From positions 21,866 to 85,865 of the IMG/VR virus record IMGVR_UViG_3300031730_000002: 64,000 bases of DNA; one strand, given 5' to 3'. How positions within the stretch are numbered: position 1 is the first letter of the stretch; the number at the start of each line of letters is the position of its first letter. The notes beneath the pieces were generated by a model, which did not search any database, was not told the DNA's origin, and saw only the letters and a program-made list of their open reading frames with translations. Both the position numbers and the translations under genes were made by a program. Source of the stretch: a virus. This document shows positions 14,720 through 51,831 of the stretch, one piece after another.

Positions 14720-14953
14720 TCAAAAGCTCGACGTTGGCACCGGATCTGCTCTACCCTTCCGAAGCGCCCACGCCCGCACACCGTCAAGCAGCACCCACAC
14801 GCCAGCCCCGAAGGGCTTGACGTACTGCTCCCCCTCCAGCCAGAGGCCCTTGTGGATGCGCTGGTAGATCGTGTTGGCGTTCTCTCCCGAGATCTCGCAG
14901 TAGCGCTTGAGCGGCAAGCCGCCCAAGCGCTCGACTGCCTCGTTCGGAGTCAC
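14720..14953 (-). CDS. Excisionase/TorI-like winged-helix DNA-binding protein
   Basis: LKRYCEISGE...TIYQRI.KG.W.EG..Y pattern. Confidence 0.65.
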   Translation of the reverse strand: MTPNEAVERLGGLPLKRYCEISGENANTIYQRIHKGLWLEGEQYVKPFGAGVWVLLDGVRAWALRKGRADPVPTSSF

Positions 14954-17055
14954 AAGGACACCACCTGGCTTGCGAAGGCGTCGACCAGCGGGCTGTGCGT
15001 CACCAGCAGCGTCTGATCGAAGCCGGCCGATGCCACCAAGCCCAGCATGTTGGTCTCGCGCTCATCGTCGCAGGCCGCCCCCGGCTCATCGAGCATGAGG
15101 AAGCGGGCGTTCGGCAGGAAGGTCTTGGTGAGGGCGATTCGGATCGCGAGCCCGAGCGCATCGAGCGTCGAGCCCGAGAGCCCGCCCACGTCCTGCCCAT
15201 CGGCCTTGAAGCCGCCGTCTGTGCGGGTGATCACCGACTGCACGCCACGAACCGACGAGAAGTAGCTGCTCACCGACGCCAGCACGATCGTCCACAGCTT
15301 GTCGGAGATCGCCGGCCGCGCGCCGCGCAGCTTCTTGATAAGCGCGTTGTTCCGGTTCATGGCTGCGAGCCGATCCCGTGCAGTGTCGAGCTGGACCTGC
15401 AGGGTGTGGCGCTGCTGTACCCGCTGGGCGTGCAGCTGCAGCTTGTGCTCCATCTCGACCCGCTTGGCGTCGAGCGCAGCCTTCACGTCGCGGATCTCGT
15501 CGCCCAGCACGCGCACACGGTGCTCCAGCGCGTCGCCAGCGTCGAGCCGAGCCTTGGCCAGCACCGCGGCAGCTTCGAGGCCTTCCTGCGCCGCCTGCAA
15601 GGCCGCCAGCTGCCCTTGCAGTGCTGAGAGCTGCCGTTCGCTGGCCGCCTTGTCCGACGCCGAGCTGAAGTATGCGCGGTGCTCGGCCTCAGCCCTGGCG
15701 ATCAGCTCGGCGTAGGCCGGTCGTTCGCCAGCGGCTTGCGGCACTTCGCCTTTCCACTTCCAGCTGTGTGGCACCTGATCGTCAGCGATCTCTATGTAGG
15801 CACTATGCTTCCCTATTGCCCGCTCGTATGCGGTCGCCTGCTGGTCGAGTAGCAACAGCTCATCATATTCAGCCTTAGTGCCGGCATAGGCTGTCTCACA
15901 AGCCAACACAGCCGTGTCGATCTCAGCCACTTCAGCATTCACTGCGATGTTGCGCTGCACGACTTCAGGCACCGATGCCAGATCCTTGTCACAGAAGGCA
16001 CAGGTCTGTTCTTTGACCAGGCCTGCGACCACAGTAGCGCGGCGAGTAAGCAGGGCGTTGTTCTGGTTGATTAAGTTGTTGACCGTCTGCAGTGAATCCT
16101 TGAGCGCTTCTGCCAATGAGGCACGACTACCAGCCCACACCAGTTCAGGCACAGGCAGGTTGTGCAGCTGGCCATAGGCCGTCAGCGCAGCGTCCTCCTG
16201 CACGCGGCTGAACAGCGCCTTGCGCCAGTCCTCGACCTGCTCCTGCGTGGTGGTCGGCTGGATGAGCAGGCGCACAGTGGCCGGTAGCACTTCGGAGATC
16301 CGTAGCGACACCTGATCGGCGTCGCGCACGCCCGCGGCGGCGTCGACGATGGCCTTCCGCGCGTCGCCGAGCGCCAGGGCATTCAGCTCTGTCGACTTGA
16401 GCTTCTGCTCTTCGTAGGCCGCGCCCATGCGGCTGTTGAGCGCGTCGATCTCGATCTCCATCGCCGCCGTGTCCAGCGGCTCAACCGCCGCAGCTTCGAG
16501 CTGGCCAGCCAGCGTGGCCAGCTGAGTCTCGACATCCTTCGTCGCGCCGGTGGGCAGGTCGTGCTGCACCATCTCCACGATCCGGTCGATGAGGTTGAAG
16601 TCGGCCAACGTCTCGATCAGCGCCGCCGCCTCGCTCGGGCCGCCGGCCAGCGCACCACGCAGCGCACCTTGCGACGCGAGCATCATCTTGCTGGCTGTGT
16701 CGGCAGTGGTGCCCAACAGGTTCTCGCAGAAGCGAGTGACTTCGGTCTGGCCAGTGACCTTGCCGCCAGCGTAGTTCAGCTCGGCACCGGACTTCTTGCG
16801 CACGATCGTGTAGCTCACGCCATCGAAGTGGAATGCAAGCTCGATGCGCAGCGCGCTCTCGGGCTGGCCCCACGTCACGCATCGGTCGAGCGGCTGGCGC
16901 AAGGCGCGGAAGCCGAACAGCGCAGCTGCAAGCGCTTCCTGGACCGTGGTCTTCCCGGCTTCATTCAAGCCGCGGATGGCCACAAGGCCTTGGGCAAAGT
17001 TGATGGTCAGATCTTCGTGCTTGCGGAAGAACTTGAGAGTGAGACGATCAAACAT
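14950..17055 (-). CDS. SbcC/Rad50-like ATPase
   Basis: Walker A GLNEAGKTT, coiled coils with central CAFC zinc hook, LSGS signature, LMLDEP, VTH. Confidence 0.93.
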   Translation of the reverse strand: MFDRLTLKFFRKHEDLTINFAQGLVAIRGLNEAGKTTVQEALAAALFGFRALRQPLDRCVTWGQPESALRIELAFHFDGVSYTIVRKKSGAELNYAGGKVTGQTEVTRFCENLLGTTADTASKMMLASQGALRGALAGGPSEAAALIETLADFNLIDRIVEMVQHDLPTGATKDVETQLATLAGQLEAAAVEPLDTAAMEIEIDALNSRMGAAYEEQKLKSTELNALALGDARKAIVDAAAGVRDADQVSLRISEVLPATVRLLIQPTTTQEQVEDWRKALFSRVQEDAALTAYGQLHNLPVPELVWAGSRASLAEALKDSLQTVNNLINQNNALLTRRATVVAGLVKEQTCAFCDKDLASVPEVVQRNIAVNAEVAEIDTAVLACETAYAGTKAEYDELLLLDQQATAYERAIGKHSAYIEIADDQVPHSWKWKGEVPQAAGERPAYAELIARAEAEHRAYFSSASDKAASERQLSALQGQLAALQAAQEGLEAAAVLAKARLDAGDALEHRVRVLGDEIRDVKAALDAKRVEMEHKLQLHAQRVQQRHTLQVQLDTARDRLAAMNRNNALIKKLRGARPAISDKLWTIVLASVSSYFSSVRGVQSVITRTDGGFKADGQDVGGLSGSTLDALGLAIRIALTKTFLPNARFLMLDEPGAACDDERETNMLGLVASAGFDQTLLVTHSPLVDAFASQVVSL

Positions 17056-18100
17056 TGTTGTGCTTCTCCAGCAGCGCAGTCACGGTGGCGCGCTCTTCTT
17101 CGTTGAGGATCTTCAGCAGCTCTTCGAGCACCGAGAATGAGCGGATCTGTTCGAGCGAGACCTGCAGCGATTCGCCGTCGTTGGTTCCTTCGACTTCGAC
17201 AGCGTTGGTGATGACCAGCGATTCGCTGTGCTTGCGGAAGCTGGAGATCGCGGTGATCACGTCCGAGGCCTGTGCCGCCGTCGCCTTGCCGACCACACGC
17301 ACGAAGTCGGTGATGCCAAGCGGCTGCAGCATCTGCCAGTCCAGCTCAGCGAAGCAGCCTTCGCGAGTCCACGTTGGCAGCCACTCGATGCCAGAGTCCG
17401 TGATGCGCAAGGCGTACTTCATGTCGTTGCCGAGACAGTCGGCCACGCTGCTCGGCACCTGGTTGCCGACGATGAGGACTTTGTTGTCCAGGTACTCTCG
17501 GCGCTGGTGCTCGTGCGCCACGATGATCTTCTCGACCTTCAGCGTGGCAGCCTGCTCCAGCGACAGGTTCAGCGAGTGGTCCGACTTCGCCGCAAAGTTG
17601 TTCGACACGTTGCAGTGCAGGAATAGGTACTTCGTGTCGGCCGGCACCTTGCTCAGCTCCAGCTCGAACAGGTCTTGGTTGGCCACGTGTGGGATGACGT
17701 ACACGCCTTCGTCAATCGTGGTGCCTTCCTTGATCACGACCACTTGGCCAGGGAAGCTCAAGGACAACAACTCGCAGAGGATGTCGAAGCTCGACAGCAC
17801 AGCCGAGTTTTTCGTCATGTCGTGGTTGCCGCGAGAAGCGTAGAGGGTAGGCACCGGCTTGTATGAGCACTCCAGCCACGCTGCGGTGATCTTGTAGATT
17901 TGCAGTAAGTCGCTCAGCGGGATCGCTGCGGTGTCGAGCCAGTCGCCGTTGATCAGCACGTCGTCGGTGCCGGCCATATCGAGCAGACCGCCGTAGTCGG
18001 CGAGCAGGTTGGCTCGTAGTTGCATCGCTGTGGCCGGCGTGGTGCCGCCGGTGCGGATCGCACCGAGGTGCAGATCGTTGATGTGGAAGAGGGGCTTCAC
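17048..18100 (-). CDS. SbcD/Mre11-like metallophosphoesterase nuclease
   Basis: DLHLG, GDWLD, GNHD, AHEH motifs; GTGA overlap start. Confidence 0.9.
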   Translation of the reverse strand: MKPLFHINDLHLGAIRTGGTTPATAMQLRANLLADYGGLLDMAGTDDVLINGDWLDTAAIPLSDLLQIYKITAAWLECSYKPVPTLYASRGNHDMTKNSAVLSSFDILCELLSLSFPGQVVVIKEGTTIDEGVYVIPHVANQDLFELELSKVPADTKYLFLHCNVSNNFAAKSDHSLNLSLEQAATLKVEKIIVAHEHQRREYLDNKVLIVGNQVPSSVADCLGNDMKYALRITDSGIEWLPTWTREGCFAELDWQMLQPLGITDFVRVVGKATAAQASDVITAISSFRKHSESLVITNAVEVEGTNDGESLQVSLEQIRSFSVLEELLKILNEEERATVTALLEKHNNV

Positions 18101-18327
18101 AGATATGACCTTCGGAACATGAGATCCAGAGAGGTTGTGGCGACCTCGACAGGCTTGACGCGCACATCGATAAATTGTGGGTGGCCGTAGTCCCGCCGCA
18201 GCTCGATGCACAGGCGGTTGTTGAGCCTAGCGAGGCCAAAGTCTTTGGCAAGGCCAAGAAGACCTTCGGCTTCGAAGCCTTCGATCTCGGCGATGTCGAC
18301 GCCGTCGATTTGCAGCTTGGCCATCAC
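18097..18327 (-). CDS. Hypothetical protein
   Basis: Translationally coupled ORF. Confidence 0.55.
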   Translation of the reverse strand: MMAKLQIDGVDIAEIEGFEAEGLLGLAKDFGLARLNNRLCIELRRDYGHPQFIDVRVKPVEVATTSLDLMFRRSYL

Positions 18328-20948: not shown

Positions 20949-21152
20949 TCACGGCGCAGGCTCCCATGAGTGGATGTCTTTCATCGCGAAGTCGCGATCA
21001 GCGTTCTTCTCAATGTCGACAGCAGCGAGCAACCACTGCATCTCTGTATGAAACTGGCTGCTACGGAAGGAGATGAAGTGCGGCTGGATCAGTCGTTTGC
21101 TGCGCTCCCCGCGATAGTTCGTGTAATCGATGACTACTCTGTCATGGATCAT
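20949..21152 (-). CDS. Stand-alone WYL-domain protein
   Basis: IDYTNYRGERSKR.I.P...QWLL.A.D.EKNA.RDF...I. Confidence 0.8.
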   Translation of the reverse strand: MIHDRVVIDYTNYRGERSKRLIQPHFISFRSSQFHTEMQWLLAAVDIEKNADRDFAMKDIHSWEPAP

Positions 21153-24100
21153 GCTGCTTCCTTTTCAAGTTGACGATCTGCCATCGCTTTGTACATCTTG
21201 ACCAAGCCTTCAGCGATGGCTGCTGCTGTAGGCTCTGCACCGATCTCGGTCTGGTTGTAGAAGTCCGGCCCGAACGAGATGCTCGACGTGATCGGGATCT
21301 TCATGTCTGCGAACGTTGCCACCATGCAGGCGTGCATGCGCGGGATGAAGGCCGGCAGGTCTTCGATCAGCACCGACGCCACCACTTCATCGTGAATGGG
21401 GCCGTAGCAGATGGCGTCGAAGTCAAAGAACAGGCCGTCCTTCCACATGCGGCCTTCAGCCAGCTTGGTCATCTCGCCAGCCGAGCCCTGCACCTTGGTG
21501 TTCACGGCTTGCCGCTCGGCCTTGCTCGACACCCAGCGGTCGCCCTTGAAGGCTTCAGCCAGGTGGCGCATCGCGCCCTTCATCGTGCGCACGAAGCCGT
21601 CCTCACGGGCCTTGGCGATCACGCGCTCCTTCCAGAGTGCCACCTCAGCGAACGCAGCTTCTCGCGCGTCGATGAAGGCCTGCGCTGCCTCTTCGCTGAC
21701 CAGCAGCGTTTGCGCGACCTTGGGCGCCATCGCCCCGAACTCGGTGGTGAAGTTGACCTTCTTCCCGAGGTTGCGATCATCCTTTACGAACTGGAACAGC
21801 GGGTGCGACTTGTGCCCGTGCCGGATCTCTTCGAACTGCTCGTAGTTCAGGTCAGGCACTTCAGCGCCCTTGGCCCGGCGCTCTGCTTGCTTGTACTTGT
21901 AGACACCGACACCGGTCAGTGCGTGCACGTCCTTCTTGTTGTCGCCGACATAGCAGGCCACCAAGTTCGGGTCTTCGCTGTAGTCGGCGATGATCTTCAG
22001 CTCTTGCGATTCGAAGTCCATCGACACCACGACGGCGTTGCGCTTGTGTGGCACCACGCACTCGCGGATCTTCGCGGCTTGCCCGTCGATCTTCTGGTGC
22101 TTCGCAAGCTGCTGCTTGTTCGGCGCGCTCTCACTTGCCCGCCGCGTGTTCGTCGCGCACTGGTTGTGCGACGGGTGGATCATGCCGTCCTTCCAGTGCA
22201 CGAAGTACGGGTAGGTTGAGTAGTAAAGCGAGCGGCGGGTGCGCACCATCTGCATCAGCCTGAAGGCTTCGAGCACGCCCTTCTGATCTGGCGTGGCGTC
22301 CATCTGCAAGGCGTACTCGATCGAGAGCTGATCGGTCTTCGGGTTGCCCTCGTAGATGCCGGCCTGCCTCATCGTGTCGGTGGCCTTGTTGCGCACACGC
22401 ACCGGCAAGCCCATCATCTCGTACATGAGCTTGGACATCTTTGTGGGTGAGCCGAGCGGGTTGTCGGGCTCGCCCTTGAAGTGCGATGTCACGTACTTGT
22501 TGAAGAGCGCAAGGCCTTCCGGCCCGCTCGTACCCGCTTGCAGCGCCAGCGCAAACGACGGCTCGTTCTCGATCTCGCGGCAGTGTGTCACCAGCTTCGA
22601 CAGCGTGCGCATCGCTGTGTCCATCTTCTTGCCGGTGCAGATGGTGAAGGCTTCCTTCACGTCGGCTGCGGTCAGCTCGGTGTAGACCGGCGGCTGCGTG
22701 CCTGTGTACTTCTTCTCGATGAGGTAGGCGCTGGCCACCTTCCAGGCATTCGCATACACGATGTCATCGGCCGCGCTCAGCTCGTTGATCTTCTCCACTG
22801 ACACAGCCATGCCGGTCAGGAAGTTGACGGCATGCTGGTAGGCCGCATCGATCTCGACTTCGAGGTAGACCTGCCATGTGTGCTCGATCTCCATCACGAG
22901 CCGGTTGTAGACGTGCAGTGCCGCGGTGCAGATGGTGTCGTCGCAGCCGTAGCCGACCACCTGCTGAGCAGTCAGCTCGTTCATCTTGTAGCGGCGCTCT
23001 TCCCACTCTTCCATCGGGAACTGCACTTCGCTGTCAACAATCTCGCCGATGTTCGAAGCATGCTCGAACACGCGGAGCTGCCGGCCGCCCGGCTGCAGCG
23101 TGCCCACAGGCCCGGCCAGCTTGGTGACTTGGTCGAAGGTCTGCTGCTCGTAGCCCAGCACACGCTTGGAGCGGTCCTTTAGCCCGAGCTTGCTGTTCTC
23201 GTCGACGTAGCTGTTCTCGAACATCGTGTCGAGGACATTGGGCAGGAAGCCGCGGTAGCCGTTGTCCTGCCAGTGCTCGGCGAACTCCTGATAGCACACG
23301 CACAGCTCGAAGGCAGTGTTCTGGATCACCAGATGCATCGTCTTCGGGATCATCTCGATGACCTTGCGCGCCTGCTCCAGCGTGATGTTGTTCGTGTTGG
23401 CATGGTCGACGCTGAAGTACATGGTGTACTGCGTGTTCTTGCCGAGCGTCAGGCTGAAGCCCGTCAGCTCGCTGCCAAGCTGGTCAAGGCGGTCTCCGTC
23501 CTTCTGTGCGGAGATCCACTCGTCGCTTGCGTCGGTTGTCGAGGTCTCGATGTCGAACGTGGCGAACGGCGACTCTTCGATGATGCGCGGCATCCACTCG
23601 ACGAAGCCTTGCAGGTTGTCAGCTGTGACCAGAAAGGTCTCGCCATACCACTTGGACACACGTTCATCGGCTTGTGCAGGCCGCGGCGTCACCATGCCTG
23701 CCTCGATCACCAGCGGCACCTGCGCAGTGTTGACCCACTCAGGGTACAGGCGTGCCACGCGGTAGGAGCGGACGGCGTTCTTCTCTTGGTCGACGATCAT
23801 CTTGATCAGCCTGTCGTCGCCGACCTGTGGGTACAGAGGCCCAAGGTCCGACTTTGCAAGCAGGTCGAGCAGCTCGTGCATACCGTCTTCGCCATAGGCA
23901 AGCAGCATCGCCTGGAATGACTTGACGCCGAAGCCTTCGACGCCGCGGATCTTGTCGGAGGTGTCGCCGACCAGCGACTTGTACAGCGTGATCAGCCGGC
24001 GATCCCACGGGCCGTAGGGATGCTGGCCGAGCGGGTCATGGTTGCGCCGCACGATGATCTTGGCGCCGTGCGCGTTGGTGCCGTGCAGGATGGTCAGGTC

Positions 24101-24547
24101 GCCGTCGCCGGTGGCGATGACGAGATCCTGTTCGGCTTCGCGAGCCAGGTAGGCGAGCACGTCGTCGCCTTCGACGAAGTCCTGCGACATCAGCGTGGAG
24201 CCAAGGCCGCGCCACAGGTTGCGCATCATCTCGCGCAGCTTCTCGAACTCGGCGTAGTTCTCAGGGGCCTTGTCTTCGCCAGCCTTGTAGATCGGGTCGA
24301 ACGCACGCCGCTTCTGCTTCGAGTGCATGCCTTCGAACACGAGGATGGCGTCGATGGGCGCGAGGCCGAACTGGTCGAGAGCACCGACCATCATGTTCAT
24401 CACGTTCTCGTAGCCGTGCTTGGCCGAGTTGATCCAAACCTTCTTGTCGGGGTCCACCGGACTTGCGACTTCGTAGCCGTTCTCGGTGTCCTTACCTGCA
24501 AAGAGTCCTGTCCACATGAAGCTGGACATATCGAATGCGATGCGCAT
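21149..24547 (-). CDS. polA: Family A DNA polymerase with 5'-3' and 3'-5' exonuclease domains
   Basis: FEN motifs (EGDD, TGDGD, GDTSD.I.GV.GFG); exo FDIET and YGCDD; pol motifs DFESQEL, KKVNF...FG, IHDE. Confidence 0.93.
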   Translation of the reverse strand: MRIAFDMSSFMWTGLFAGKDTENGYEVASPVDPDKKVWINSAKHGYENVMNMMVGALDQFGLAPIDAILVFEGMHSKQKRRAFDPIYKAGEDKAPENYAEFEKLREMMRNLWRGLGSTLMSQDFVEGDDVLAYLAREAEQDLVIATGDGDLTILHGTNAHGAKIIVRRNHDPLGQHPYGPWDRRLITLYKSLVGDTSDKIRGVEGFGVKSFQAMLLAYGEDGMHELLDLLAKSDLGPLYPQVGDDRLIKMIVDQEKNAVRSYRVARLYPEWVNTAQVPLVIEAGMVTPRPAQADERVSKWYGETFLVTADNLQGFVEWMPRIIEESPFATFDIETSTTDASDEWISAQKDGDRLDQLGSELTGFSLTLGKNTQYTMYFSVDHANTNNITLEQARKVIEMIPKTMHLVIQNTAFELCVCYQEFAEHWQDNGYRGFLPNVLDTMFENSYVDENSKLGLKDRSKRVLGYEQQTFDQVTKLAGPVGTLQPGGRQLRVFEHASNIGEIVDSEVQFPMEEWEERRYKMNELTAQQVVGYGCDDTICTAALHVYNRLVMEIEHTWQVYLEVEIDAAYQHAVNFLTGMAVSVEKINELSAADDIVYANAWKVASAYLIEKKYTGTQPPVYTELTAADVKEAFTICTGKKMDTAMRTLSKLVTHCREIENEPSFALALQAGTSGPEGLALFNKYVTSHFKGEPDNPLGSPTKMSKLMYEMMGLPVRVRNKATDTMRQAGIYEGNPKTDQLSIEYALQMDATPDQKGVLEAFRLMQMVRTRRSLYYSTYPYFVHWKDGMIHPSHNQCATNTRRASESAPNKQQLAKHQKIDGQAAKIRECVVPHKRNAVVVSMDFESQELKIIADYSEDPNLVACYVGDNKKDVHALTGVGVYKYKQAERRAKGAEVPDLNYEQFEEIRHGHKSHPLFQFVKDDRNLGKKVNFTTEFGAMAPKVAQTLLVSEEAAQAFIDAREAAFAEVALWKERVIAKAREDGFVRTMKGAMRHLAEAFKGDRWVSSKAERQAVNTKVQGSAGEMTKLAEGRMWKDGLFFDFDAICYGPIHDEVVASVLIEDLPAFIPRMHACMVATFADMKIPITSSISFGPDFYNQTEIGAEPTAAAIAEGLVKMYKAMADRQLEKEAA

Positions 24548-40231: not shown

Positions 40232-40834
40232 CTAGCCGGCTGTGAAGTTCCCTCCATGCCAGAAGACTGTGCCGGAAGGCTCCGGCGGATTCGTGTTCTC
40301 GGCATCATGTGCACGCAGCATCTCGAACGCCAGCTCATAGGCCGCAGAGATCCGCGCACCTTCAGCACGAACTCGCGGCAGTGGTTCCAGGCGCTGCTCG
40401 ATAACGCGGTGCGCAAGGTTGGGCTTGCCGTCCTTGACCTGCACCTTCGCCTTCAGCGCCAGGAACTTCTTCTCGATCTCGTCAACCTTCTCCATGTTGC
40501 GTCGATGCTGTGCGTACTTGCCCTGCAGCATCACCGTGGCGTTGGTCACCACGTCACCTGCCGGTGTGTCGAGCACCGCGGCCATCGCCTCCATCACGAA
40601 GCCTGCAGCCTCCTGCTCGACTGGCGACTTCTCCTGCGCGCTGCCGGTCTCGTCATACTCCTTGCGTCGCTCAGGCACTGACAGCACGGCGTAGGCGTCG
40701 TTGACCTGCTGCATCTTCTCGGCGCTCCCGCCTTCACGGTCGGGGTGCGCCTTTGAAGACGCCTTGCGGTACGCCTTCTTGATGGTGTCTTCGTCGGCGT
40801 CTTTGGGGACACCGAGGGTTTCGTAGAGGTTCAC
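40232..40834 (-). CDS. J-domain (DnaJ N-terminal) co-chaperone protein
   Basis: LYETLGV...IKKAYRK...HPDR.GG...AYAVLS..RRKEYD. Confidence 0.92.
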   Translation of the reverse strand: MNLYETLGVPKDADEDTIKKAYRKASSKAHPDREGGSAEKMQQVNDAYAVLSVPERRKEYDETGSAQEKSPVEQEAAGFVMEAMAAVLDTPAGDVVTNATVMLQGKYAQHRRNMEKVDEIEKKFLALKAKVQVKDGKPNLAHRVIEQRLEPLPRVRAEGARISAAYELAFEMLRAHDAENTNPPEPSGTVFWHGGNFTAG

Positions 40835-41232
40835 CGTTTGATCTCCACCACCGGGCACATCTTCTCCTTCCACCCTCGGTAGGCCTCGCGCAGAAGACTC
40901 CCGCTCGTTGTTGAGGCTGTGCGCTCGCTCAGCATGTGCAGGCCCCCGACAAGCAGGCCAAAGGCCAGCAGGATCAGCGCGACTCCAGGCACCACGAAGA
41001 AGCCTGACTCGAACTCACCGAGGCCGATCCAGAAAAGAAGACCGAAGGCCGGCAGCACGACTGCACCACCGATGACGATAAAGCCTAAAAAGACCACCCC
41101 GATGAACTTGAGCGGGGCCACCAGCACGGAGCGCCAGAAGATCTCGCACAAGGTTTGCGTGCGTTGGTAGGGACTGAGCCCGCCGAACTCGGCCCACTTG
41201 ATGAGGGCGCTTTGTCTGTTGATTGTGATCAC
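40831..41232 (-). CDS. 2-TM membrane protein
   Basis: Two hydrophobic helices; GTGA overlap with the J-domain gene. Confidence 0.6.
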   Translation of the reverse strand: MITINRQSALIKWAEFGGLSPYQRTQTLCEIFWRSVLVAPLKFIGVVFLGFIVIGGAVVLPAFGLLFWIGLGEFESGFFVVPGVALILLAFGLLVGGLHMLSERTASTTSGSLLREAYRGWKEKMCPVVEIKR

Positions 41233-41819: not shown

Positions 41820-43823
41820 TCAGAAGACCAGGTTGATGATTCGAGAGAAGCTGCCCTTGACTCGGCAGCGCACGCTGTTGCGTTGGGTGGATGAGAAGCC
41901 GAGGCCGGACAGCTGACGATCGCTCTCGTCAGTGCGCATCTTGCTTCCCACGAGTTCGAGTGTTTTGCGGTGCGGGGTGAGTTCCTCCTTCAAAAATTCG
42001 TTGTAGAAGCCGCGGGCCTGTCCCTCATTACGGCAAGCCTCCAGCATGAAGAAGTAGTGGCGGTTGCCGGTCTCTTCGCCATCCCAGTGGTTCGGGCTCA
42101 TCATCATCACGTTGACCGGCTGGAAGGTCTGCGTGGTGATGCCCCACATCTGCTTCGACGACTGCGTGCTGGGCAGGGACTCGATGATCTCAATACCCCT
42201 GGCCTTGCTGTACAGAATGTTGGCCACGCCAATCGTGTCCTTGGTGCGCAGCACCTTGTCGTAGACGATGTTGAGCTTTTGCCCGCCGAACTCGATCTCG
42301 ACTTCGAAGCCCACGCCTTCAGAGCGGCGGCTGTAGTTGTTGACCTGCAGCGCATACACGCCTTCACGCATCGTCTTCGCGTCGGCGTAGAAGATGTTCT
42401 CGACCGGCTTGGCCATCATGCCGCTGCCGCCGTTAGCATCGACATCCAGCTTGCCGCCGCACGAACTCTTCATGCTGCGGTTGCCGTAGTAGATGTGGCC
42501 ACCGCCCGGCTCGATCATGTGGAAGTCCAGATCGTCCGTGTAGTCCCATGCAAGGCGGCAGCACAGGTCACCAGTGACGTTGCCGCCGGCTGCCTTGACA
42601 CGCTCCTTGATCGAGTCGGCCACGCCGCCGTTGTATTCCCAGCTGAAGCGGTTGCCCCACTTGAACAACGGCTTCGCAGTCGGGTCTGCCGGCGCCACCA
42701 GCGACATCAGATTGCCGGCGTGACGGTTCTCGAACAGCAGCTCGATCGACTCGGCACGCGGCAGGATGTCGCGGATGAAGGTCTCGATGCCCACGTCCTC
42801 GACCTTGTCGAGCGACTTCTCCTTGACAGCCACCTTGGCCGCCAGATCATCGAACACATCGGCGTTCAGCTTCTTCTTGGCGTTGCGATTGGCGAAGAGG
42901 ATGTTGTTGACCGTGATGTCTTCGATGGTGGCGTAGCGACGCTCCAGCGCCGAGCCCAAGCCGAGTTCGTTGATGGCTTCCTTGGCCTTCTCGATCATCG
43001 CCTTCGTCACCAGCGCAGTCGGCCGCTTGTAGTTGGCCGGTGCGACCTTGTCCTCGAACGCCTTCACCGCCTTCTCCAGATCGACGCCTTCGGACAGGTC
43101 GACTAGCAGCGTGCCGATGACCGTGTTGCGGATCATGCCCTTCGGCGTGAGGTTGGCCCACACGAAGTTGTACTGATGCTCATGCTTGAGAGCGGAAAAC
43201 TTGACCTTCATGTCGGCGAAGTTGGTGACAGCGGCCTTGTGCTCTTCACCACGGTACAGCGCGTTCTGCGAGATCAAGTCGAGCACGGTGTTGATCGCCT
43301 CGTTGGTGATCTCCTGCAAGCCGCGGAGCATCACGTCGTAGTTCGCGCGCCGCTTGCTCAGCTCGGTCGCGATGTCGGCACCCGGCAGCACGAACTGGCT
43401 TGGGATGTTCACGAAGAAGTGCGGCCACGTGTGCACACCGTCGAGCGTGTCGACCAGCGTCTTGTCCGTGCCGGCCTTGGCTTCGTAGTGCAGGAAGGAG
43501 TTCTCGATCGGGTGCGACTTGACCAGCGCGGCCAGCTTGTCGCAGACCGCCTGGTAGTTCGCGTCTTCACAGAGCGCGTCCCAAATCGACACCACCTTGC
43601 CGTCGATGATCGCGACGACATCGCCGACTGCGCGGATGAAGCCCTTGCAGCAGTTGCAGTCGTGTTCGGTGTTCGTCTTGTAGATCGGGTTCGTGCCGGC
43701 CGGGAACGAAGACAGATAGCGTTCCCACATGGCGTCCTTGGAGACGGTGGTGCGGAACATCGGGTACTTCGCCATCGTGGCGAACTGGGCCGCTACAGCG
43801 ACCTTGATGTGTTTGAAGTCCAT
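41820..43823 (-). CDS. 667-aa protein with N-terminal HDCNCC motif and YfaP/DUF2135-like C-terminal domain
   Basis: LAW...DDLD.H..EP.G..IYY.N.....GKLDVD...PVENI...G.Y...VNNY. Confidence 0.7.
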   Translation of the reverse strand: MDFKHIKVAVAAQFATMAKYPMFRTTVSKDAMWERYLSSFPAGTNPIYKTNTEHDCNCCKGFIRAVGDVVAIIDGKVVSIWDALCEDANYQAVCDKLAALVKSHPIENSFLHYEAKAGTDKTLVDTLDGVHTWPHFFVNIPSQFVLPGADIATELSKRRANYDVMLRGLQEITNEAINTVLDLISQNALYRGEEHKAAVTNFADMKVKFSALKHEHQYNFVWANLTPKGMIRNTVIGTLLVDLSEGVDLEKAVKAFEDKVAPANYKRPTALVTKAMIEKAKEAINELGLGSALERRYATIEDITVNNILFANRNAKKKLNADVFDDLAAKVAVKEKSLDKVEDVGIETFIRDILPRAESIELLFENRHAGNLMSLVAPADPTAKPLFKWGNRFSWEYNGGVADSIKERVKAAGGNVTGDLCCRLAWDYTDDLDFHMIEPGGGHIYYGNRSMKSSCGGKLDVDANGGSGMMAKPVENIFYADAKTMREGVYALQVNNYSRRSEGVGFEVEIEFGGQKLNIVYDKVLRTKDTIGVANILYSKARGIEIIESLPSTQSSKQMWGITTQTFQPVNVMMMSPNHWDGEETGNRHYFFMLEACRNEGQARGFYNEFLKEELTPHRKTLELVGSKMRTDESDRQLSGLGFSSTQRNSVRCRVKGSFSRIINLVF

Positions 43824-45383: not shown

Positions 45384-46298
45384 CTAGAGTTGCGCCTGCA
45401 GAGCAGACAAGACATCTCGCGCCACGGTCGGGCAGACCGCGTTGCCGAGCATATGGGTAGCCTCACGTTTGACCTTCGGCAGCACGATGTGATCGCCGAA
45501 GGACATGATCGCGCGGTTCTCGCTGGGCTGCAACACACGCATGTGCTTGCCGCGGATCACAGCCCAGCGATCGATCGTGGTCACGGTGCCGATGGGCCGC
45601 GACACGCTGCGACCCGTGGTGCCGCTGCCGCTGCCGTAGAAGGGCGCGACGAAGCGCTCGCCATAGCGCTCGCGCCCGCTGCGAATTCGCTCCAGCGTGG
45701 CAGCGCTGCGGCCTGGCTTGTCGATCTCCGTCCACGAGTGGGTGTCGTCCCACTTGATAAAGCCCTCGACCGCGACGTGCTCGCGCTTGGGCAAGCGAAG
45801 CTGCAGCGGGTGCTTGGTCTTCGTGATGACGATGAACACCCGCTCGCGGTGCTGCGGCACGCCGTGGTCTGCCGCGTCGACGATGTGTGGCGAGAGCTGG
45901 TAGCCGGCGATTTCCAGCGCCAGCTTCCACGCAGGGTACAGATCCCAGTCCAGGAACTCGGGCACGTTCTCGATCACGATCGGCTTGGCGTGGAACTCTG
46001 CGTAGTCGACGACAGCCCAAGCCGTCGAGCGCATCGCATCGTGCCGCGGCTTGTCGACGCCGCGCGCCTTCGAGTGGCCCTGGCAAGCCGGGGAGAAGAC
46101 GCCAATGTCGTGGGCAGGGAGCGAAGACCAGTCCAGGATGTGTGCGTCCTGGCACTCGACATGGGTGGCAGGGTGATTGACCTTGTGGTAGTGGCAGGCC
46201 TTGTCCCAGTGGTTGAAGGCGAAGACAGGCTCCATGCCTGCAAGGCGTGCGCCCTCACTGAATCCGCCGATGCCGGCGAAACCGTCGATGACTTTCAT
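45384..46298 (-). CDS. C5-cytosine DNA methyltransferase
   Basis: FAGIGG, SPACQGHS, ENV, Q.RERVF, LGNAV. Confidence 0.93.
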   Translation of the reverse strand: MKVIDGFAGIGGFSEGARLAGMEPVFAFNHWDKACHYHKVNHPATHVECQDAHILDWSSLPAHDIGVFSPACQGHSKARGVDKPRHDAMRSTAWAVVDYAEFHAKPIVIENVPEFLDWDLYPAWKLALEIAGYQLSPHIVDAADHGVPQHRERVFIVITKTKHPLQLRLPKREHVAVEGFIKWDDTHSWTEIDKPGRSAATLERIRSGRERYGERFVAPFYGSGSGTTGRSVSRPIGTVTTIDRWAVIRGKHMRVLQPSENRAIMSFGDHIVLPKVKREATHMLGNAVCPTVARDVLSALQAQL

Positions 46299-46323
46299 TG
46301 ATGTGTCCTTTCTAAGTTTTAGA

Positions 46324-48540
46324 TCACTTCTCGGCAGCGGCTCGATCCCACACATCGCGGTCAAACACCGCCCCGATGGTCGAGCGATGCTTGCGCAGCT
46401 CCAGGTAGGCTGCGTCCAGCTCGGCGCGCAGTGCTTCAGGGTATGCGTACTCGATCTCGCCGGCCACACGATGTCCTGGCGGCGGCGGCATGTCCTGCCA
46501 GTCCTTGCGCAGACCTGGAAGATGGGCGTAGTGGGTCGATGACCAGCGCCACGCCACCGGCTCTGCTCCCGCATCGGCTAGTGGGGCTGGCTGTGCCTTC
46601 GGCGCGGTCAGGGCCGCGCGAATCCACGCCTTCAGTTCGCTGCGCAGGATCTTCTTTCCGAAGACCGAAACGCGCGGCTCTTGCTGGTGCTCCATCATGT
46701 AGAGCGCTGCCGACAAAAGCTCTGGCAATTGGTCGGTGGGCGGCTCTGGCTGTGCTGGTGCGGAGGTGAGGGCGGCACGCAGGCGTTCGATTTCGTTTGC
46801 AGCCTCTTCGCACAACGCGATGCGATTCAAGCCGAATACCCCGCCACGAAGCCTTGCAACGATATCGCTCGGCTCCCCGACGTTGGTAGCGGTCATGTTG
46901 TCTGTTCCTTCATTCGGCGGATATTTGCCGATGGCCTTGCGGCAAATTTCGATGCAACCCTGGGTACGGCATTCGCCGCAGTCAACGAGGCTCACGGTGT
47001 CTGCTCCTTCGGTGTTGTTTGTTGCGAGGGGGTGGGCTTTCTCGGCCAGTCTGGGTGCGTGTAGACCCAGGCATACGCGACTGCCGAGTAAATGAAGTCC
47101 AGAGCATTTGGGTCGTGCCCAGACAGGATTCGTCCGGCTGGCAAAACACAGGCGACAAACACGGAAGCCAACCAACGCAACGCGCTCATGACTTCACCTC
47201 TGGAACTGCGAGGGTGGCCGCAAGAAGTCTGTGCGCCTCGCACTTGTGTTCGTGACTCGCGCCGCCGTAGACCTTGCTGTGCCAGCACCCGCACGCTGCC
47301 ACGCCCATTTCGCCCATCGTCTGCGGAAGGCTTTCTCTCGTCGCCGCAGCGAGCGCATCACGCAGCCGTTCAACCTCGCTGTCGTGGCCGGCTGCCTTGA
47401 GCAACGCTCGCGCGAATTGCCGGTAACCCCAAGACTTCAAGAAGCCTTGAGCGCCATCGGGCATCGCGTTGAAAACCACATCGATCTGGTCATCGCTCAC
47501 TACTTCTTCTCCTGCTCTGGTGCGGGTGGGGCGGGAGGCAGGGGCCATTCGTGCTCGGTGACGGTGATGCTTCGCTGGCGGTCGGTATTGCCGCTCAAGC
47601 CTTCCACAGCAAGAAGGTGCAACCGCATGCGCTCGCCGTCTTCCTTGCGAGAGAACCAAATGGCGTTGTTGGCGTCGGAGCACCAACTGGCGTGGCGGCC
47701 CGGCTCATAGTTGAAGCCCCACCACTGTGGCCCATAGCCGTGTGCCTGCCACTCGATCAGCCATGCGCGCTCGCCCGCCTGCTCTGGCACGGTGGGCCAG
47801 CCCATAGCAGCGGCAATGGCGGTGCGGGCAGTTGCGATCCAGTGCGTAGGGCCGGTCTTCGATTCGTCCAGCCCGTCGTACTCAATGCTCTGGTGGATGG
47901 CTTCTTGAAGCGCGGTCACCAACTGCTTCACGAGCGCAGCCGCCTCGAACCTCTCCCGCTCGGTTTGCGCTGCGTGTGCGGCAATACCAGCACGCCGAAA
48001 CTCGCGCATCTGGTCGGCGGTGAACAACTCGACCGGCCACCATTGAGGCGGCACGGGGAATAGGTCGATGCAGAAATCACCGTTGCTGTGCATGTGCCCG
48101 ACACGCGCAGGCAACGGTGGCAGCGCAGCCACCTCGAACTCTGCGGGGGTGGCTGCGCGCTCTTGGGCGGCTTGGTTCATTGCTCTCTCCTTGGTCATAG
48201 TCCTTGGTCCGCCAGATACTCGGCACACATCAGCGCAAAGCAGTCACAGTCAAAATCGGGCGTGAGATCGAACAGCAGCCCGAACTCCTGCTCGATCCAG
48301 CACTGCGCAGTGAGCAGCATGGTCGAGTGCTCGTACTCCATCCGCAATGCCTGCTCGCGCAGTGCCGATGACAGCGGGCCGTACTCCAGATGCGCGTCGT
48401 CGGGGTGAATGCGGAACGAGGTGTGGCCTGGATAGCCCAACCACGAGATAGAACAAACCCACCACTGTTGCCCGTCATGGGCGTCGTGAAAGCCATAGTG
48501 TTGAATTCGCGCACCGCGTGCCCACGCAAACTTAAGTCGT
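46324..48540 (-). other. Cluster of mosaic ead/ea22-like small genes
   Basis: EAANEIERLR, AEPVAW, LFTADQMR modules; codon usage differs from flanks. Confidence 0.5.
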
Positions 48541-49839
48541 TCGATGTTCACAGTACGTAGTCCGCGGTGATGTTCTCGTCCTGCGTCCAGCCCGCCTCGA
48601 ACATGTAGTCGTTGGCGATCTCTTCGGCCTCGTGCTCGTCTAACCGCAGGCCGGGGATGTGCGACCAGACCGCGCACCAGACGATGTTGAAGCCAACGGC
48701 ATAGCCCACGAAGCGGGCATTTTCCGGCGCCTCGTCCGGCCGGCGCGGGCTCAGCGCGTCGTCGACCGCCCACGTTGCCTTGATCTTCTCTCGCATCAGT
48801 TCCATGTGATTTCCTTCCAGTCTTCGGGGTCGTCGAACTTGGCCTTGGCGTTGTCAGCCTGCACCAGCCAGCTCTGCTTGAACTCGTTGCTCTGGTACAG
48901 CTTGAAAGGTACGCCGTTGGCCAAGCAGTACTCGACCAAGACCCAAAACTGCCCGCCTGTCCAGCTGCCGTAGACCCCGGTGTGCCGGAAGGTCTCGATC
49001 AGCCGATTAGCTCCTGTGTACGTGGGCCGGGCCAGCACCTTGTGCGGTAGGTTGGCCAGCGTGCGCTGCGACGGCTCGGCGCGCGTCCTGCCGTCACCGA
49101 TGAACGGCGCGAACTGCGGCGGCTTCTTCCATGCCATTGTTCATGCCCAAGTAAAGGTGAGCAACTCGCAGAGCTGCCCGTTGAAGTTGCCGAACGAGAC
49201 GTTCTCGCAGGCTCGTGGTTTCGCGTCGATGTGGTTGGCCTGCCAGTCTTTGACGATGGCCAGCTCTTCGGGAGTCAGGCCGGTGGCGTCGGAGTACATC
49301 AAAAATCCGCACCAGAAGGCGGGGAGCTTGTGCTGGACGAGGGCGGTCACGTGTAGAACCCTCGCTCTTTCAGCAGCAAGTAGATCTCCATGAAGGCCTT
49401 CACCTCCTGCTTGGCCAAGTCGATCTCCTGGATCGGCGTGCCGGGCACCTGGTTGTAGGGTTGACCGCCGCGCTGGTAGCAAAGCGCCTCCGCGATCATG
49501 TGGACATCACTTTCTGAGACGTAGATCATTTAGCTCTCCTGTCGTTCATCTCCATGCCAGCCAGCATACCGCCCGCCATCGCAAGCATCGCGCCGAAGCG
49601 GTAGCGGCTGACCGTCATCGCATGTTGCTGCTTCTCCATCAACTCGCGCGCTGCCGGCGGCAGTGCCTCGATCTCAGCGCGGCGCCGTGCCTGCTCTTCC
49701 TCGATCGCTGCCTTCTGCAGCGCAGCGTGCGTGGCGATGCGGGCCTTCGCATTCGCGACACGCTCATCCCGCTTCAGGATGTTGCGCATCATCGCCAGCC
49801 GCTCACGCTCAGCGTGGGACAGTTTGTGTTTCTTGGTCA

Positions 49840-50064
49840 TCAGAAGTGTTCCTCGTTGGGTTTGCGGGCGGCCTCGACCAAGTCGCGGACCTGCTGTTCG
49901 AGCGTGGCGACACGCTGCTCAAGCGTGGGGCGGGTGCGCAGCCACTCCAACGCCTTGTCGACATCGCCGTCACTGTGCACCAGCGCCCGTTTGCACTCCA
50001 TCAGCGGCTCGCTGGTGATCTCCTGCAGGTCGCGACACATTTGCGCCGTGATGTGGGCGGGCAT
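49840..50064 (-). CDS. EF-Ts N-terminal (UBA-like) domain protein with coiled-coil tail
   Basis: ITAQMCRDLQEITSEPLMECKRALVHSDGDVDKALEWLR; TGATG overlap start. Confidence 0.8.
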   Translation of the reverse strand: MPAHITAQMCRDLQEITSEPLMECKRALVHSDGDVDKALEWLRTRPTLEQRVATLEQQVRDLVEAARKPNEEHF

Positions 50065-51831
50065 CACGGCAGCGTCTCCGCGTCGGCGAGTTCCTTGGCC
50101 CTTTCGACCAGGGTAGCGAGAACATGCGCATGATCGAAGCGCGGCGAAGGCATCTGCGCTAGCTCGCGCACGAAGTCCTTGTACTCGTGGAAGCCTGGTG
50201 CAGGCGCCGACAGCAGCAGAGGGAACGCCTTGTTCAGCCTTGCTTGGTTGGTACTGTCGGCCACCAGCCATGCGTCGGCCAGCTTGGCAGCGAAGCCGCC
50301 TTGGCCGCCGCGAGCAAGGCGGCAGACGTGGTCGTGAAGTCGTGAGTTCATGGGGTCTCCTGGTCAGGTAAGCGTCCAGTCTTCTCGAACTGCGCGTCGT
50401 AGGCTTGACGCAGCTCGAAAGCCATGTAGCCGGTCTTCACAGCGATCTTGCACACGGCGTCGGGAAACTCCATGCCTGACGTGATCAGATCGTTGAGCTG
50501 TCGCAGCGCGGAGCGCAAGCCGGGGCTGTACTCAGAACTCGTCATCGGGCATCTCCTTGTCGCAGATGGCACACACGAAGCGGCCTTCGCCGTAGTGCTG
50601 GTAGTCGTGGCCAGCCCAGCCGCACAGCGTCTGGTTGATCCAGGTGAGGAAGCGCATGATCACAGGTGTTTCTCCAGAACGATTCGCGCCTTTTCGCTGC
50701 CGCCCTTCTTGTCGAAGAGGCTCTTCAGCTCGGGCGTGCAGCGAAGAGAGATGCGGGCCGAGTGCTCGGGCTTGCCGTGTGGCGCTCGGGTCTTGGGTCG
50801 GTGTTGGGTTTGTTTCAAAGCAGCATCTCCTTTGCGTCACGACCGACACTCAACAGAATCAGGATGCCTTCGCGGAACGGCACACCAGCGGCCTTGGCCG
50901 CGGTGCAGCAGCCCATGAAGAACTCCATCTGCGCCTTGGCGTGAGTCACGGTGCCGGGCTTGAAGCCCTGCGTCTTGCGCCGCGTCAGCCACTGCTCGAT
51001 GCAGGCGTTGGTGATGTCAGCCGGCATCTTTGATCGCTCCCAACTCGTCCACGATATTCGCGAAGATCATGTGCTGACCTTGAAGAAAGTACTCAAAGCC
51101 TTCCTCGAAGATCTCGACCAGTACTAGACGCTGGCCGACCATGAAGCACTCGATCTTCACGATGCTGGTGTTCTCTGGTCCAGGCATGCTCCACATGCAG
51201 CGAGCATCAAGCATGTTGAGCATGCCATTCAGCGCCGCTAGGCGGCGGGTTTGGGTGGGGCTCATTGGTTACCTCGAAAAGAGTTGGCAAGGACTGACAG
51301 CGCAACAGCCACAAGGCCCGACGCGACCACCTTGGCGATGTCAGGCGTTGCGGCGCTGGCCATGTACAGACAGATCACCGTCTGCACGACAGACGCGCAG
51401 GTAAAGCCGGCGTGTGCTGGTCTCATTTGGTCTCCTTGAAAGCCACCGCGAGGATGGCAAAAGTAACGCCTGCGAGAGCGCAGGCCTCCACCTTCTCTAT
51501 CTCAGGCATCTCACCTCCTGTGAAGCCGTAGGCCGCGATCGTCGAGAGCAGCGCTGCGAGAGCGTAGATCGTTCGTATCGGGAAGGTCATAGCAGCCCCA
51601 TCTCTTTCAACGCTTCCCTGGTTGTGATGTAGTCCTGGTTGAGTGTTCCAATCGCGAGATGATCAGCGTGCATGCGCTGAAGCGCCGCGATAGCGATATT
51701 GCCTTTGTCGTAGCTGTTCAGCCTGTCGGCCAGAAACTCAAGCGCCTCTCTCGGCATGCCACGAATCTGAATCAGCAGCCCTGAGTCGGTCTCCACCTCA
51801 AGTCTGCTCGAATCGACAACGATCGCAGCCT

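Follow-up and report, generated by a model that had tools for sequence, protein, structure and literature searches.

A small phage gene for a stand-alone EF-Ts N-terminal domain followed by a conserved heptad tail

EF-Tu is the most abundant bacterial protein. It is also a hub of phage-host conflict, as a target of cleavage by Lit and type IV Thoeris, a component of Avs7, and a factor recruited by Qbeta replicase (PMC13581612). Phage-borne pieces of its partner EF-Ts have been described in the Caulobacter phage Colossus (gp247) and in Lactococcus Ceduovirus (gp21), and both were proposed to be translation modulators (PMC3556154, PMC7150918). In the Mycobacterium tuberculosis complex, R13 in helix 1 of EF-Ts bonds with P114/E155 of EF-Tu, K24 in helix 2 forms salt bridges with D144/D145, and the substitution R13A disrupts the complex (PMC9529903). 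[quoted passage not shown] Our literature searches found no experimental study of a phage protein built on the N-terminal (TS-N) domain of EF-Ts alone.

Stand-alone phage TS-N proteins are nevertheless a recurrent kind, known from automatic annotation. The Bacillus phage Kirov gp210 ("putative translation elongation factor") consists of a zinc ribbon and TS-N. The Sinorhizobium phage phiN3 encodes a 59-aa "Elongation factor Ts-like protein", listed in BFVD. In the Ralstonia phage RSP15, an unannotated 70-aa ORF between ORF136 and ORF137 (LC121084.1, 110782-110994) encodes TS-N with a C-terminal CxxC. A 132-aa protein with zinc ribbons and TS-N is present on a 77-kb IMG/VR contig, and in the 485-kb uncultured megaphage LR745208.1 an ORF of about 75 aa (at about 81.6-81.8 kb) encodes an N-terminal heptad helix and then TS-N. 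The recurrence of the domain in unrelated phages with differing add-ons suggests that the module itself is selected.

The window, i.e., the whole 64,000-nucleotide stretch of DNA analyzed in this study, covers bases 21866-85865 of a single 85,865-bp contig of an uncultured phage. The only sequencing run listed as containing the stretch is a root metagenome (DNA), which may be the source sample; no RNA run is listed. The plus-strand arm of the genome encodes the large terminase, portal, protease, and major head protein. Further along this arm are a 1547-codon open frame that enters at the start of the window, which we read as the tape-measure gene from its position and length, and a tip-attachment J-like protein. 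The minus-strand arm, approximately 49 kb long, starts at the right end of the genome with dozens of small orphan ORFs, followed by genes for a C5 methyltransferase, a J-domain protein, an SNF2 helicase, PolA, and SbcCD-like proteins. Within the window, and all on the minus strand, the C5 cytosine methyltransferase gene lies at 45384-46574, the SbcC/SbcD-like pair at 14950-18211, and the gene of the 1132-aa PolA, which has a 5'-3' exonuclease domain, at 21149-24547. The best phage match of PolA, to Vibrio phages, is only 28% identical. A 667-aa protein (41820-43823, minus strand) had no Pfam match and aligned end to end with phrog_1735 (E 1.7e-275), a family widely conserved in phages. The megablast search of the phage against INPHARED returned no DNA match. 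Because of this and the distant PolA match, we regard the phage as a taxonomic singleton in the collections searched. The IMG/VR scans with the 74-aa protein studied here, with P0154, and with the phage PolA also returned no relatives.

The gene of interest, located among the small orphan ORFs approximately 14 kb from the right end, is upstream of the replication genes. The first-pass annotation had placed it in an early region. This label is a positional one, from the place of the gene on the leftward arm; the promoter and terminator scan did not rise above the shuffled expectation and was uninformative. The 74-aa ORF that had been proposed there is real and its coordinates are exact. It is read from the minus strand, with the ATG at 50064-50062 and the TGA at 49842-49840. 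The peptide first quoted for it corresponds to residues 1-43, and the quoted heptad stretch to residues 48-62. The features of the locus are as follows.

49840-50064, minus strand: 74-aa coding sequence, a stand-alone EF-Ts N-domain with a heptad tail (from the sequence and the conserved family)
49930-50058, minus strand: residues 3-45, TS-N (UBA-like) three-helix bundle with helices at residues 7-17, 21-30, and 35-44 (TIGR00116, phmmer against the PDB, AlphaFold2, Foldseek)
49864-49923, minus strand: residues 48-67, amphipathic tail helix (AlphaFold2 helix at pLDDT 85-96; column statistics of 12 family members)
50076-50079, minus strand: GGAG, Shine-Dalgarno-like, 11 nt 5' of the ATG (read from the sequence)
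50062-50066, minus strand: TGATG stop/start overlap with the upstream 95-aa ORF (read from the sequence)
49838-49842, minus strand: TGATG stop/start overlap with the downstream 104-aa ORF (read from the sequence)
50064-50351, minus strand: upstream coupled ORF, 95 aa, an orphan with only a weak match to phrog_15317
49526-49840, minus strand: downstream coupled ORF, 104 aa, an orphan with a charged helix and a Gly/Met-rich hydrophobic C-terminus

The GC3 of the 74-aa gene is 0.85, and the GC content of the window is 61%. PHROGs contains no family for the 74-aa protein, and both coupled neighbors are orphans. The downstream orphan has a highly charged helical body, and its Gly/Met/Ala-rich hydrophobic C-terminus resembles a membrane anchor.

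Residues 3-45 reproduce specifically the N-terminal (TS-N, UBA-like) domain of EF-Ts. The NCBIfam model TIGR00116 (tsf) aligned residues 4-45 with profile positions 3-44 of 293, at 36.9 bits and E 2.3e-9. This score is below the curated whole-protein cut-off of the equivalog model, 104.05 bits. The Pfam model PF00627 (UBA/TS-N) gave a borderline 22.0 bits against a gathering cut-off of 22.4, and PF25025 (EF-Ts_N), which is a mitochondrial model, gave 19.4 bits against 33.2. All five significant phmmer matches in the PDB were EF-Ts (7vmx_A, 1efu_B, and Qbeta-replicase fusions; E 8.7e-6 to 3.1e-4). These alignments run from N-terminus to N-terminus: phage residue 3 falls on EF-Ts residue 1-2, and EF-Ts residues 1-46 are covered. 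Among 1.8 billion representative proteins, phmmer returned 964 matches at E<=1e-3, nearly all of them EF-Ts N-termini, and the ESM Atlas returned only sub-threshold EF-Ts and UBA clusters. The AlphaFold2 model, built from a 48-sequence alignment, had a pLDDT of 88.3 and placed a fourth helix at residues 48-67, after the three of the bundle. When this model was compared with the PDB by Foldseek, ranks 1-14 were EF-Ts N-domains with 26-51% identity and an rmsd of 0.5-1.7 A over 36-42 columns; UBA domains of the generic type, CUE, and NAC domains appeared only below rank 14. L7/L12 was absent from the Pfam, NCBIfam, PDB sequence, and Foldseek lists. The domain had been described from the letters alone as an EF-Ts N-domain mimic, and these searches bear that out against the two competing assignments, ribosomal L7/L12 and a generic UBA domain.

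The exchange-catalyzing core, reported missing at first reading, is indeed absent. PF00889 (EF_TS core) gave no match, the TDFV/Phe81 segment, which expels GDP, has no counterpart, nothing past residue 45 is related to EF-Ts, and the protein ends at residue 74. Since both the core and the Phe81 segment are lacking, the 74-aa protein cannot catalyze nucleotide exchange.

The stretch that follows the domain had been noted as a heptad tail, and both AlphaFold2 and the column statistics of the family agree on a conserved heptad helix. Across the 12 family members, the seam positions 48/52/55/59/62, in 4-3-4-3 spacing, are occupied by I/L/V/M/F in 83-100% of cases, and the positions between them are polar. 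Arg51 and Glu56, spaced i/i+5, are invariant. From the sequence pattern we infer that R51 and E56 occupy g and e', the classic spacing of an inter-helix salt bridge in a parallel coiled coil. The tail thus has the conserved hydrophobic a/d seam and the g-e' charge pair of such coils, and its approximately 20 residues probably pair with themselves in this way. As the tail spans only about 2.5 heptads, self-association is not assured.

The profile search of 5.8 billion proteins found 12 clusters with both domain and tail, at 93-121 bits, while EF-Ts fragments scored <=69 bits. A few short proteins with both parts were already among the phmmer matches. Within the 5.8 billion proteins, TS-N with this C-terminal tail defines a rare family, whose other members share 43-78% identity with the phage protein and sit on contigs of up to 160 kb. 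Twelve positions are invariant in the family (L13, P20, M22, C24, A27, L28, A38, R43, P46, R51, L55, and E56), and the tail pattern R-x-P-P-x-L-E-x-R-V-x-x-L-E is confined to these 12 clusters. Add-ons also occur inside the family: two TS-N-like domains in tandem in one member, a zinc ribbon at the N-terminus of another, and an additional Cys-rich module at the C-terminus of a third. In this last member (P0010) the Cys-rich module covers residues 60-100, and tblastn found the module without TS-N on nine other viral IMG/VR contigs; P0010 therefore resembles two phage modules fused into one protein. The megaphage LR745208 ORF was related to the family by hhalign at 97% probability, with the architecture reversed. 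What is new here is TS-N joined to a probable C-terminal coiled coil, as an architectural variant of a recurrent kind of phage mini-protein.

The family has proline in all members at the position of E. coli EF-Ts Gly18. The motif D-A-P-M-M-E-C-K is native to betaproteobacterial EF-Ts, as in the rpsB-tsf-pyrH-frr locus of Accumulibacter. Over residues 3-43, the phage protein shares 24/41 identities with Accumulibacter EF-Ts versus 19/41 with Pseudomonas EF-Ts, and the best named matches of the family profile are Ramlibacter, Accumulibacter, Hylemonella, Rhodoferax, and Burkholderiales. By these comparisons the closest cellular relatives are betaproteobacterial EF-Ts. Most likely, the domain was captured from the tsf gene of a betaproteobacterial host, which is the simplest reading and fits the GC content and the root source. 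The scans of GTDB and of metagenomes, dominated by genuine tsf genes, found no stand-alone form; the GTDB motif check and the stop-to-stop ORF check of metagenomes gave only tsf genes or pieces of them. In the IMG/VR alignment scan, the only matches were a bacterial rpsB-tsf contig and a stretch resembling UBA in a 2458-aa protein. Two matches were rejected as phage genes. "Pseudomonas phage Y1" (OQ572403.1, unverified) is ordinary host rpsB-tsf DNA at the matching place, and IMGVR_UViG_3300029215_000002 contains an ordinary bacterial rpsB-tsf locus (host DNA or contamination).

What the domain does now was considered from its contact residues. A total of 205 distinct EF-Ts N-domains were compared with 12 family representatives, anchored on M-x-C-K-x-A-L. 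The family retains most of the positions that are nearly invariant in EF-Ts: L13, T17, M22, C24, K25, A27, L28, G33, D34, A38, and R43 are kept in 83-100% of the family, and V10 is kept in 75%. In the alignment with the PDB matches, Mtb K24 (E. coli K23) corresponds to Lys25 of the phage protein, and this lysine is kept in 92% of the family. Mtb R13 (E. coli R12) corresponds to Gln14. The family keeps the helix-1 arginine in 50% of members, against 100% of EF-Ts. For the first Met of the MM pair (E. coli Met19), which is Leu21 in the phage protein, the figures are 42% and 98%, and for the Glu at the position of residue 30, which the phage protein lacks, they are 8% and 86%. Nothing in the phage protein corresponds to K51 and G54 of E. 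coli EF-Ts, since its tail departs from EF-Ts after Arg43.

We tentatively believe that the 74-aa protein may be a non-catalytic, probably dimeric EF-Tu docking protein, and we hold this at somewhat less than an even chance. The TS-N module would dock where the N-domain of EF-Ts normally binds, on the G domain of host EF-Tu. This surface is helix D, which the C-terminal domain of L7/L12 uses as well; Kothe et al. in 2004 reportedly described contact of the L7/L12 C-terminal domain with helix D of EF-Tu. The docked protein could at most occupy or tether EF-Tu, without exchange. It might compete with EF-Ts and the ribosomal stalk, act as a shield, or serve as an adaptor between EF-Tu and a phage partner, and the tail would make it bivalent. 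The higher score of the tsf model (36.9 bits, against 22 bits for the Pfam UBA model) argues for docking, as it marks the domain as EF-Ts-specific and not generic UBA. So does the EF-Ts signature, which is mostly retained in the family including the polar surface positions T17, M22, C24, K25, G33, D34, K37, E40, and R43; among these, K25 matches the residue of Mtb EF-Ts that forms the salt bridge to EF-Tu. That so much of the EF-Ts surface is kept over deep divergence favors the original partner. However, the helix-1 Arg, the first Met, and the residue-30 Glu are relaxed in the family, and replacement of this arginine by alanine disrupts the Mtb complex. Constraint lost at the best-documented contact points to weaker or altered binding, especially in this protein with its Gln14 and Leu21. 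The isolated N-domain may also bind EF-Tu only weakly.

A second explanation is possible, though we are inclined to doubt it. The TS-N domain from tsf may have been exapted as a scaffold that now binds another phage or host partner, with no meaningful binding of EF-Tu; the tail would then be the main element or a second binding site. The relaxation falls on the positions that are most invariant in EF-Ts, and the family has invariant residues that are foreign to EF-Ts (Pro46, Arg51, Leu55, and Glu56) together with a frequent Cys31, all of which suits a changed partner. The tight coupling to two orphan neighbors, which are possible partners, points the same way. No search indicated an alternative partner. 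The conservation of many polar EF-Ts surface positions over deep divergence, K25 included, also speaks against an exapted scaffold. Moreover, other phage TS-N proteins (RSP15 and the IMG/VR zinc-ribbon form) keep both the helix-1 arginine and the MM pair.

It is more speculative, and in our opinion very unlikely, that the protein imitates the exposed EF-Ts N-domain towards a toxin or defense effector that needs EF-Tu/EF-Ts. The surface of EF-Ts is closely mimicked, and toxins that need EF-Tu/EF-Ts do exist (PMC9071432); the CdiA-CT tRNases need them as cofactors. Nevertheless, the literature searches found no defense system that reads the EF-Ts N-domain. Finally, some "phage" records do contain host rpsB-tsf DNA, as in Pseudomonas phage Y1 and an IMG/VR contig, but a decaying, functionless fragment of a transduced host tsf is hardly credible for an ORF that is intact, coupled to its neighbors, and high in GC3, and whose tail, foreign to EF-Ts, is conserved in 12 clusters at >=93 bits versus <=69 bits for tsf fragments.

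Docking on EF-Tu, our preferred reading, has a parallel on the same arm of the genome. A 213-aa protein (40232-40873, minus strand) has an N-terminal DnaJ (J) domain (Pfam E 4e-20) and a remainder with no assignment. The J domain is the minimal DnaK-docking module of DnaJ, and the protein is a second case in the same phage of the docking domain of a host cofactor carried alone. It offers a parallel for a phage that borrows the docking domain of a cofactor.

If docking on EF-Tu is true, a minimal phage-encoded EF-Tu docking module would represent a new class of host-takeover or counter-defense factor, and a compact tool for the perturbation of EF-Tu. If EF-Tu is not bound, the protein would instead illustrate how a domain of a host translation factor is exapted as a neutral scaffold. 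Cultured phages (Ralstonia RSP15, Sinorhizobium phiN3, and Bacillus Kirov) carry versions of the module, so the question is directly testable. A broader proposal, which we consider unlikely as a whole, is that phages have repeatedly taken the EF-Tu-gripping domain from host EF-Ts and joined it to oligomerizing or zinc-ribbon modules, yielding a soluble clamp that holds the G domain of EF-Tu without catalysis. In the present phage, the clamp would be a dimeric decoy for EF-Ts and the ribosomal stalk that throttles early host translation or hides EF-Tu from Lit, type IV Thoeris, and Avs7.

Compared with known systems, the phage protein is closest to the N-domain of EF-Ts itself (E. coli residues 1-54, 1EFU chain B; Mtb 7VMX). 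The two share the three-helix bundle (rmsd 0.5-1.0 A, 41-51% identity), the extreme N-terminal position, and the signature T..(G/P)MM(D/E)CK(K/R)AL....GD...A...LR. Unlike EF-Ts, the phage protein has no core, dimerization, or C-terminal modules, its contact Arg is replaced by Gln, and its linker is replaced by a heptad helix. L7/L12 likewise carries its EF-Tu-contacting C-terminal domain, which meets helix D, on a dimerizing module, and the sequence and fold searches made here gave no match between it and the phage protein. The phage-borne pieces of the Colossus gp247 and Ceduovirus gp21 type contain core subdomain N with the Phe81 equivalent, or the C-terminal part of EF-Ts, whereas the present protein contains the N-terminal domain only. 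The proteins of RSP15, Kirov, phiN3, and the megaphage are like it in holding an isolated TS-N in a small phage protein. They differ in the add-on, which in these phages is a zinc ribbon, a coiled coil at the N-terminus, or absent, whereas the tail described here occurs only in the 12 clusters of the family.
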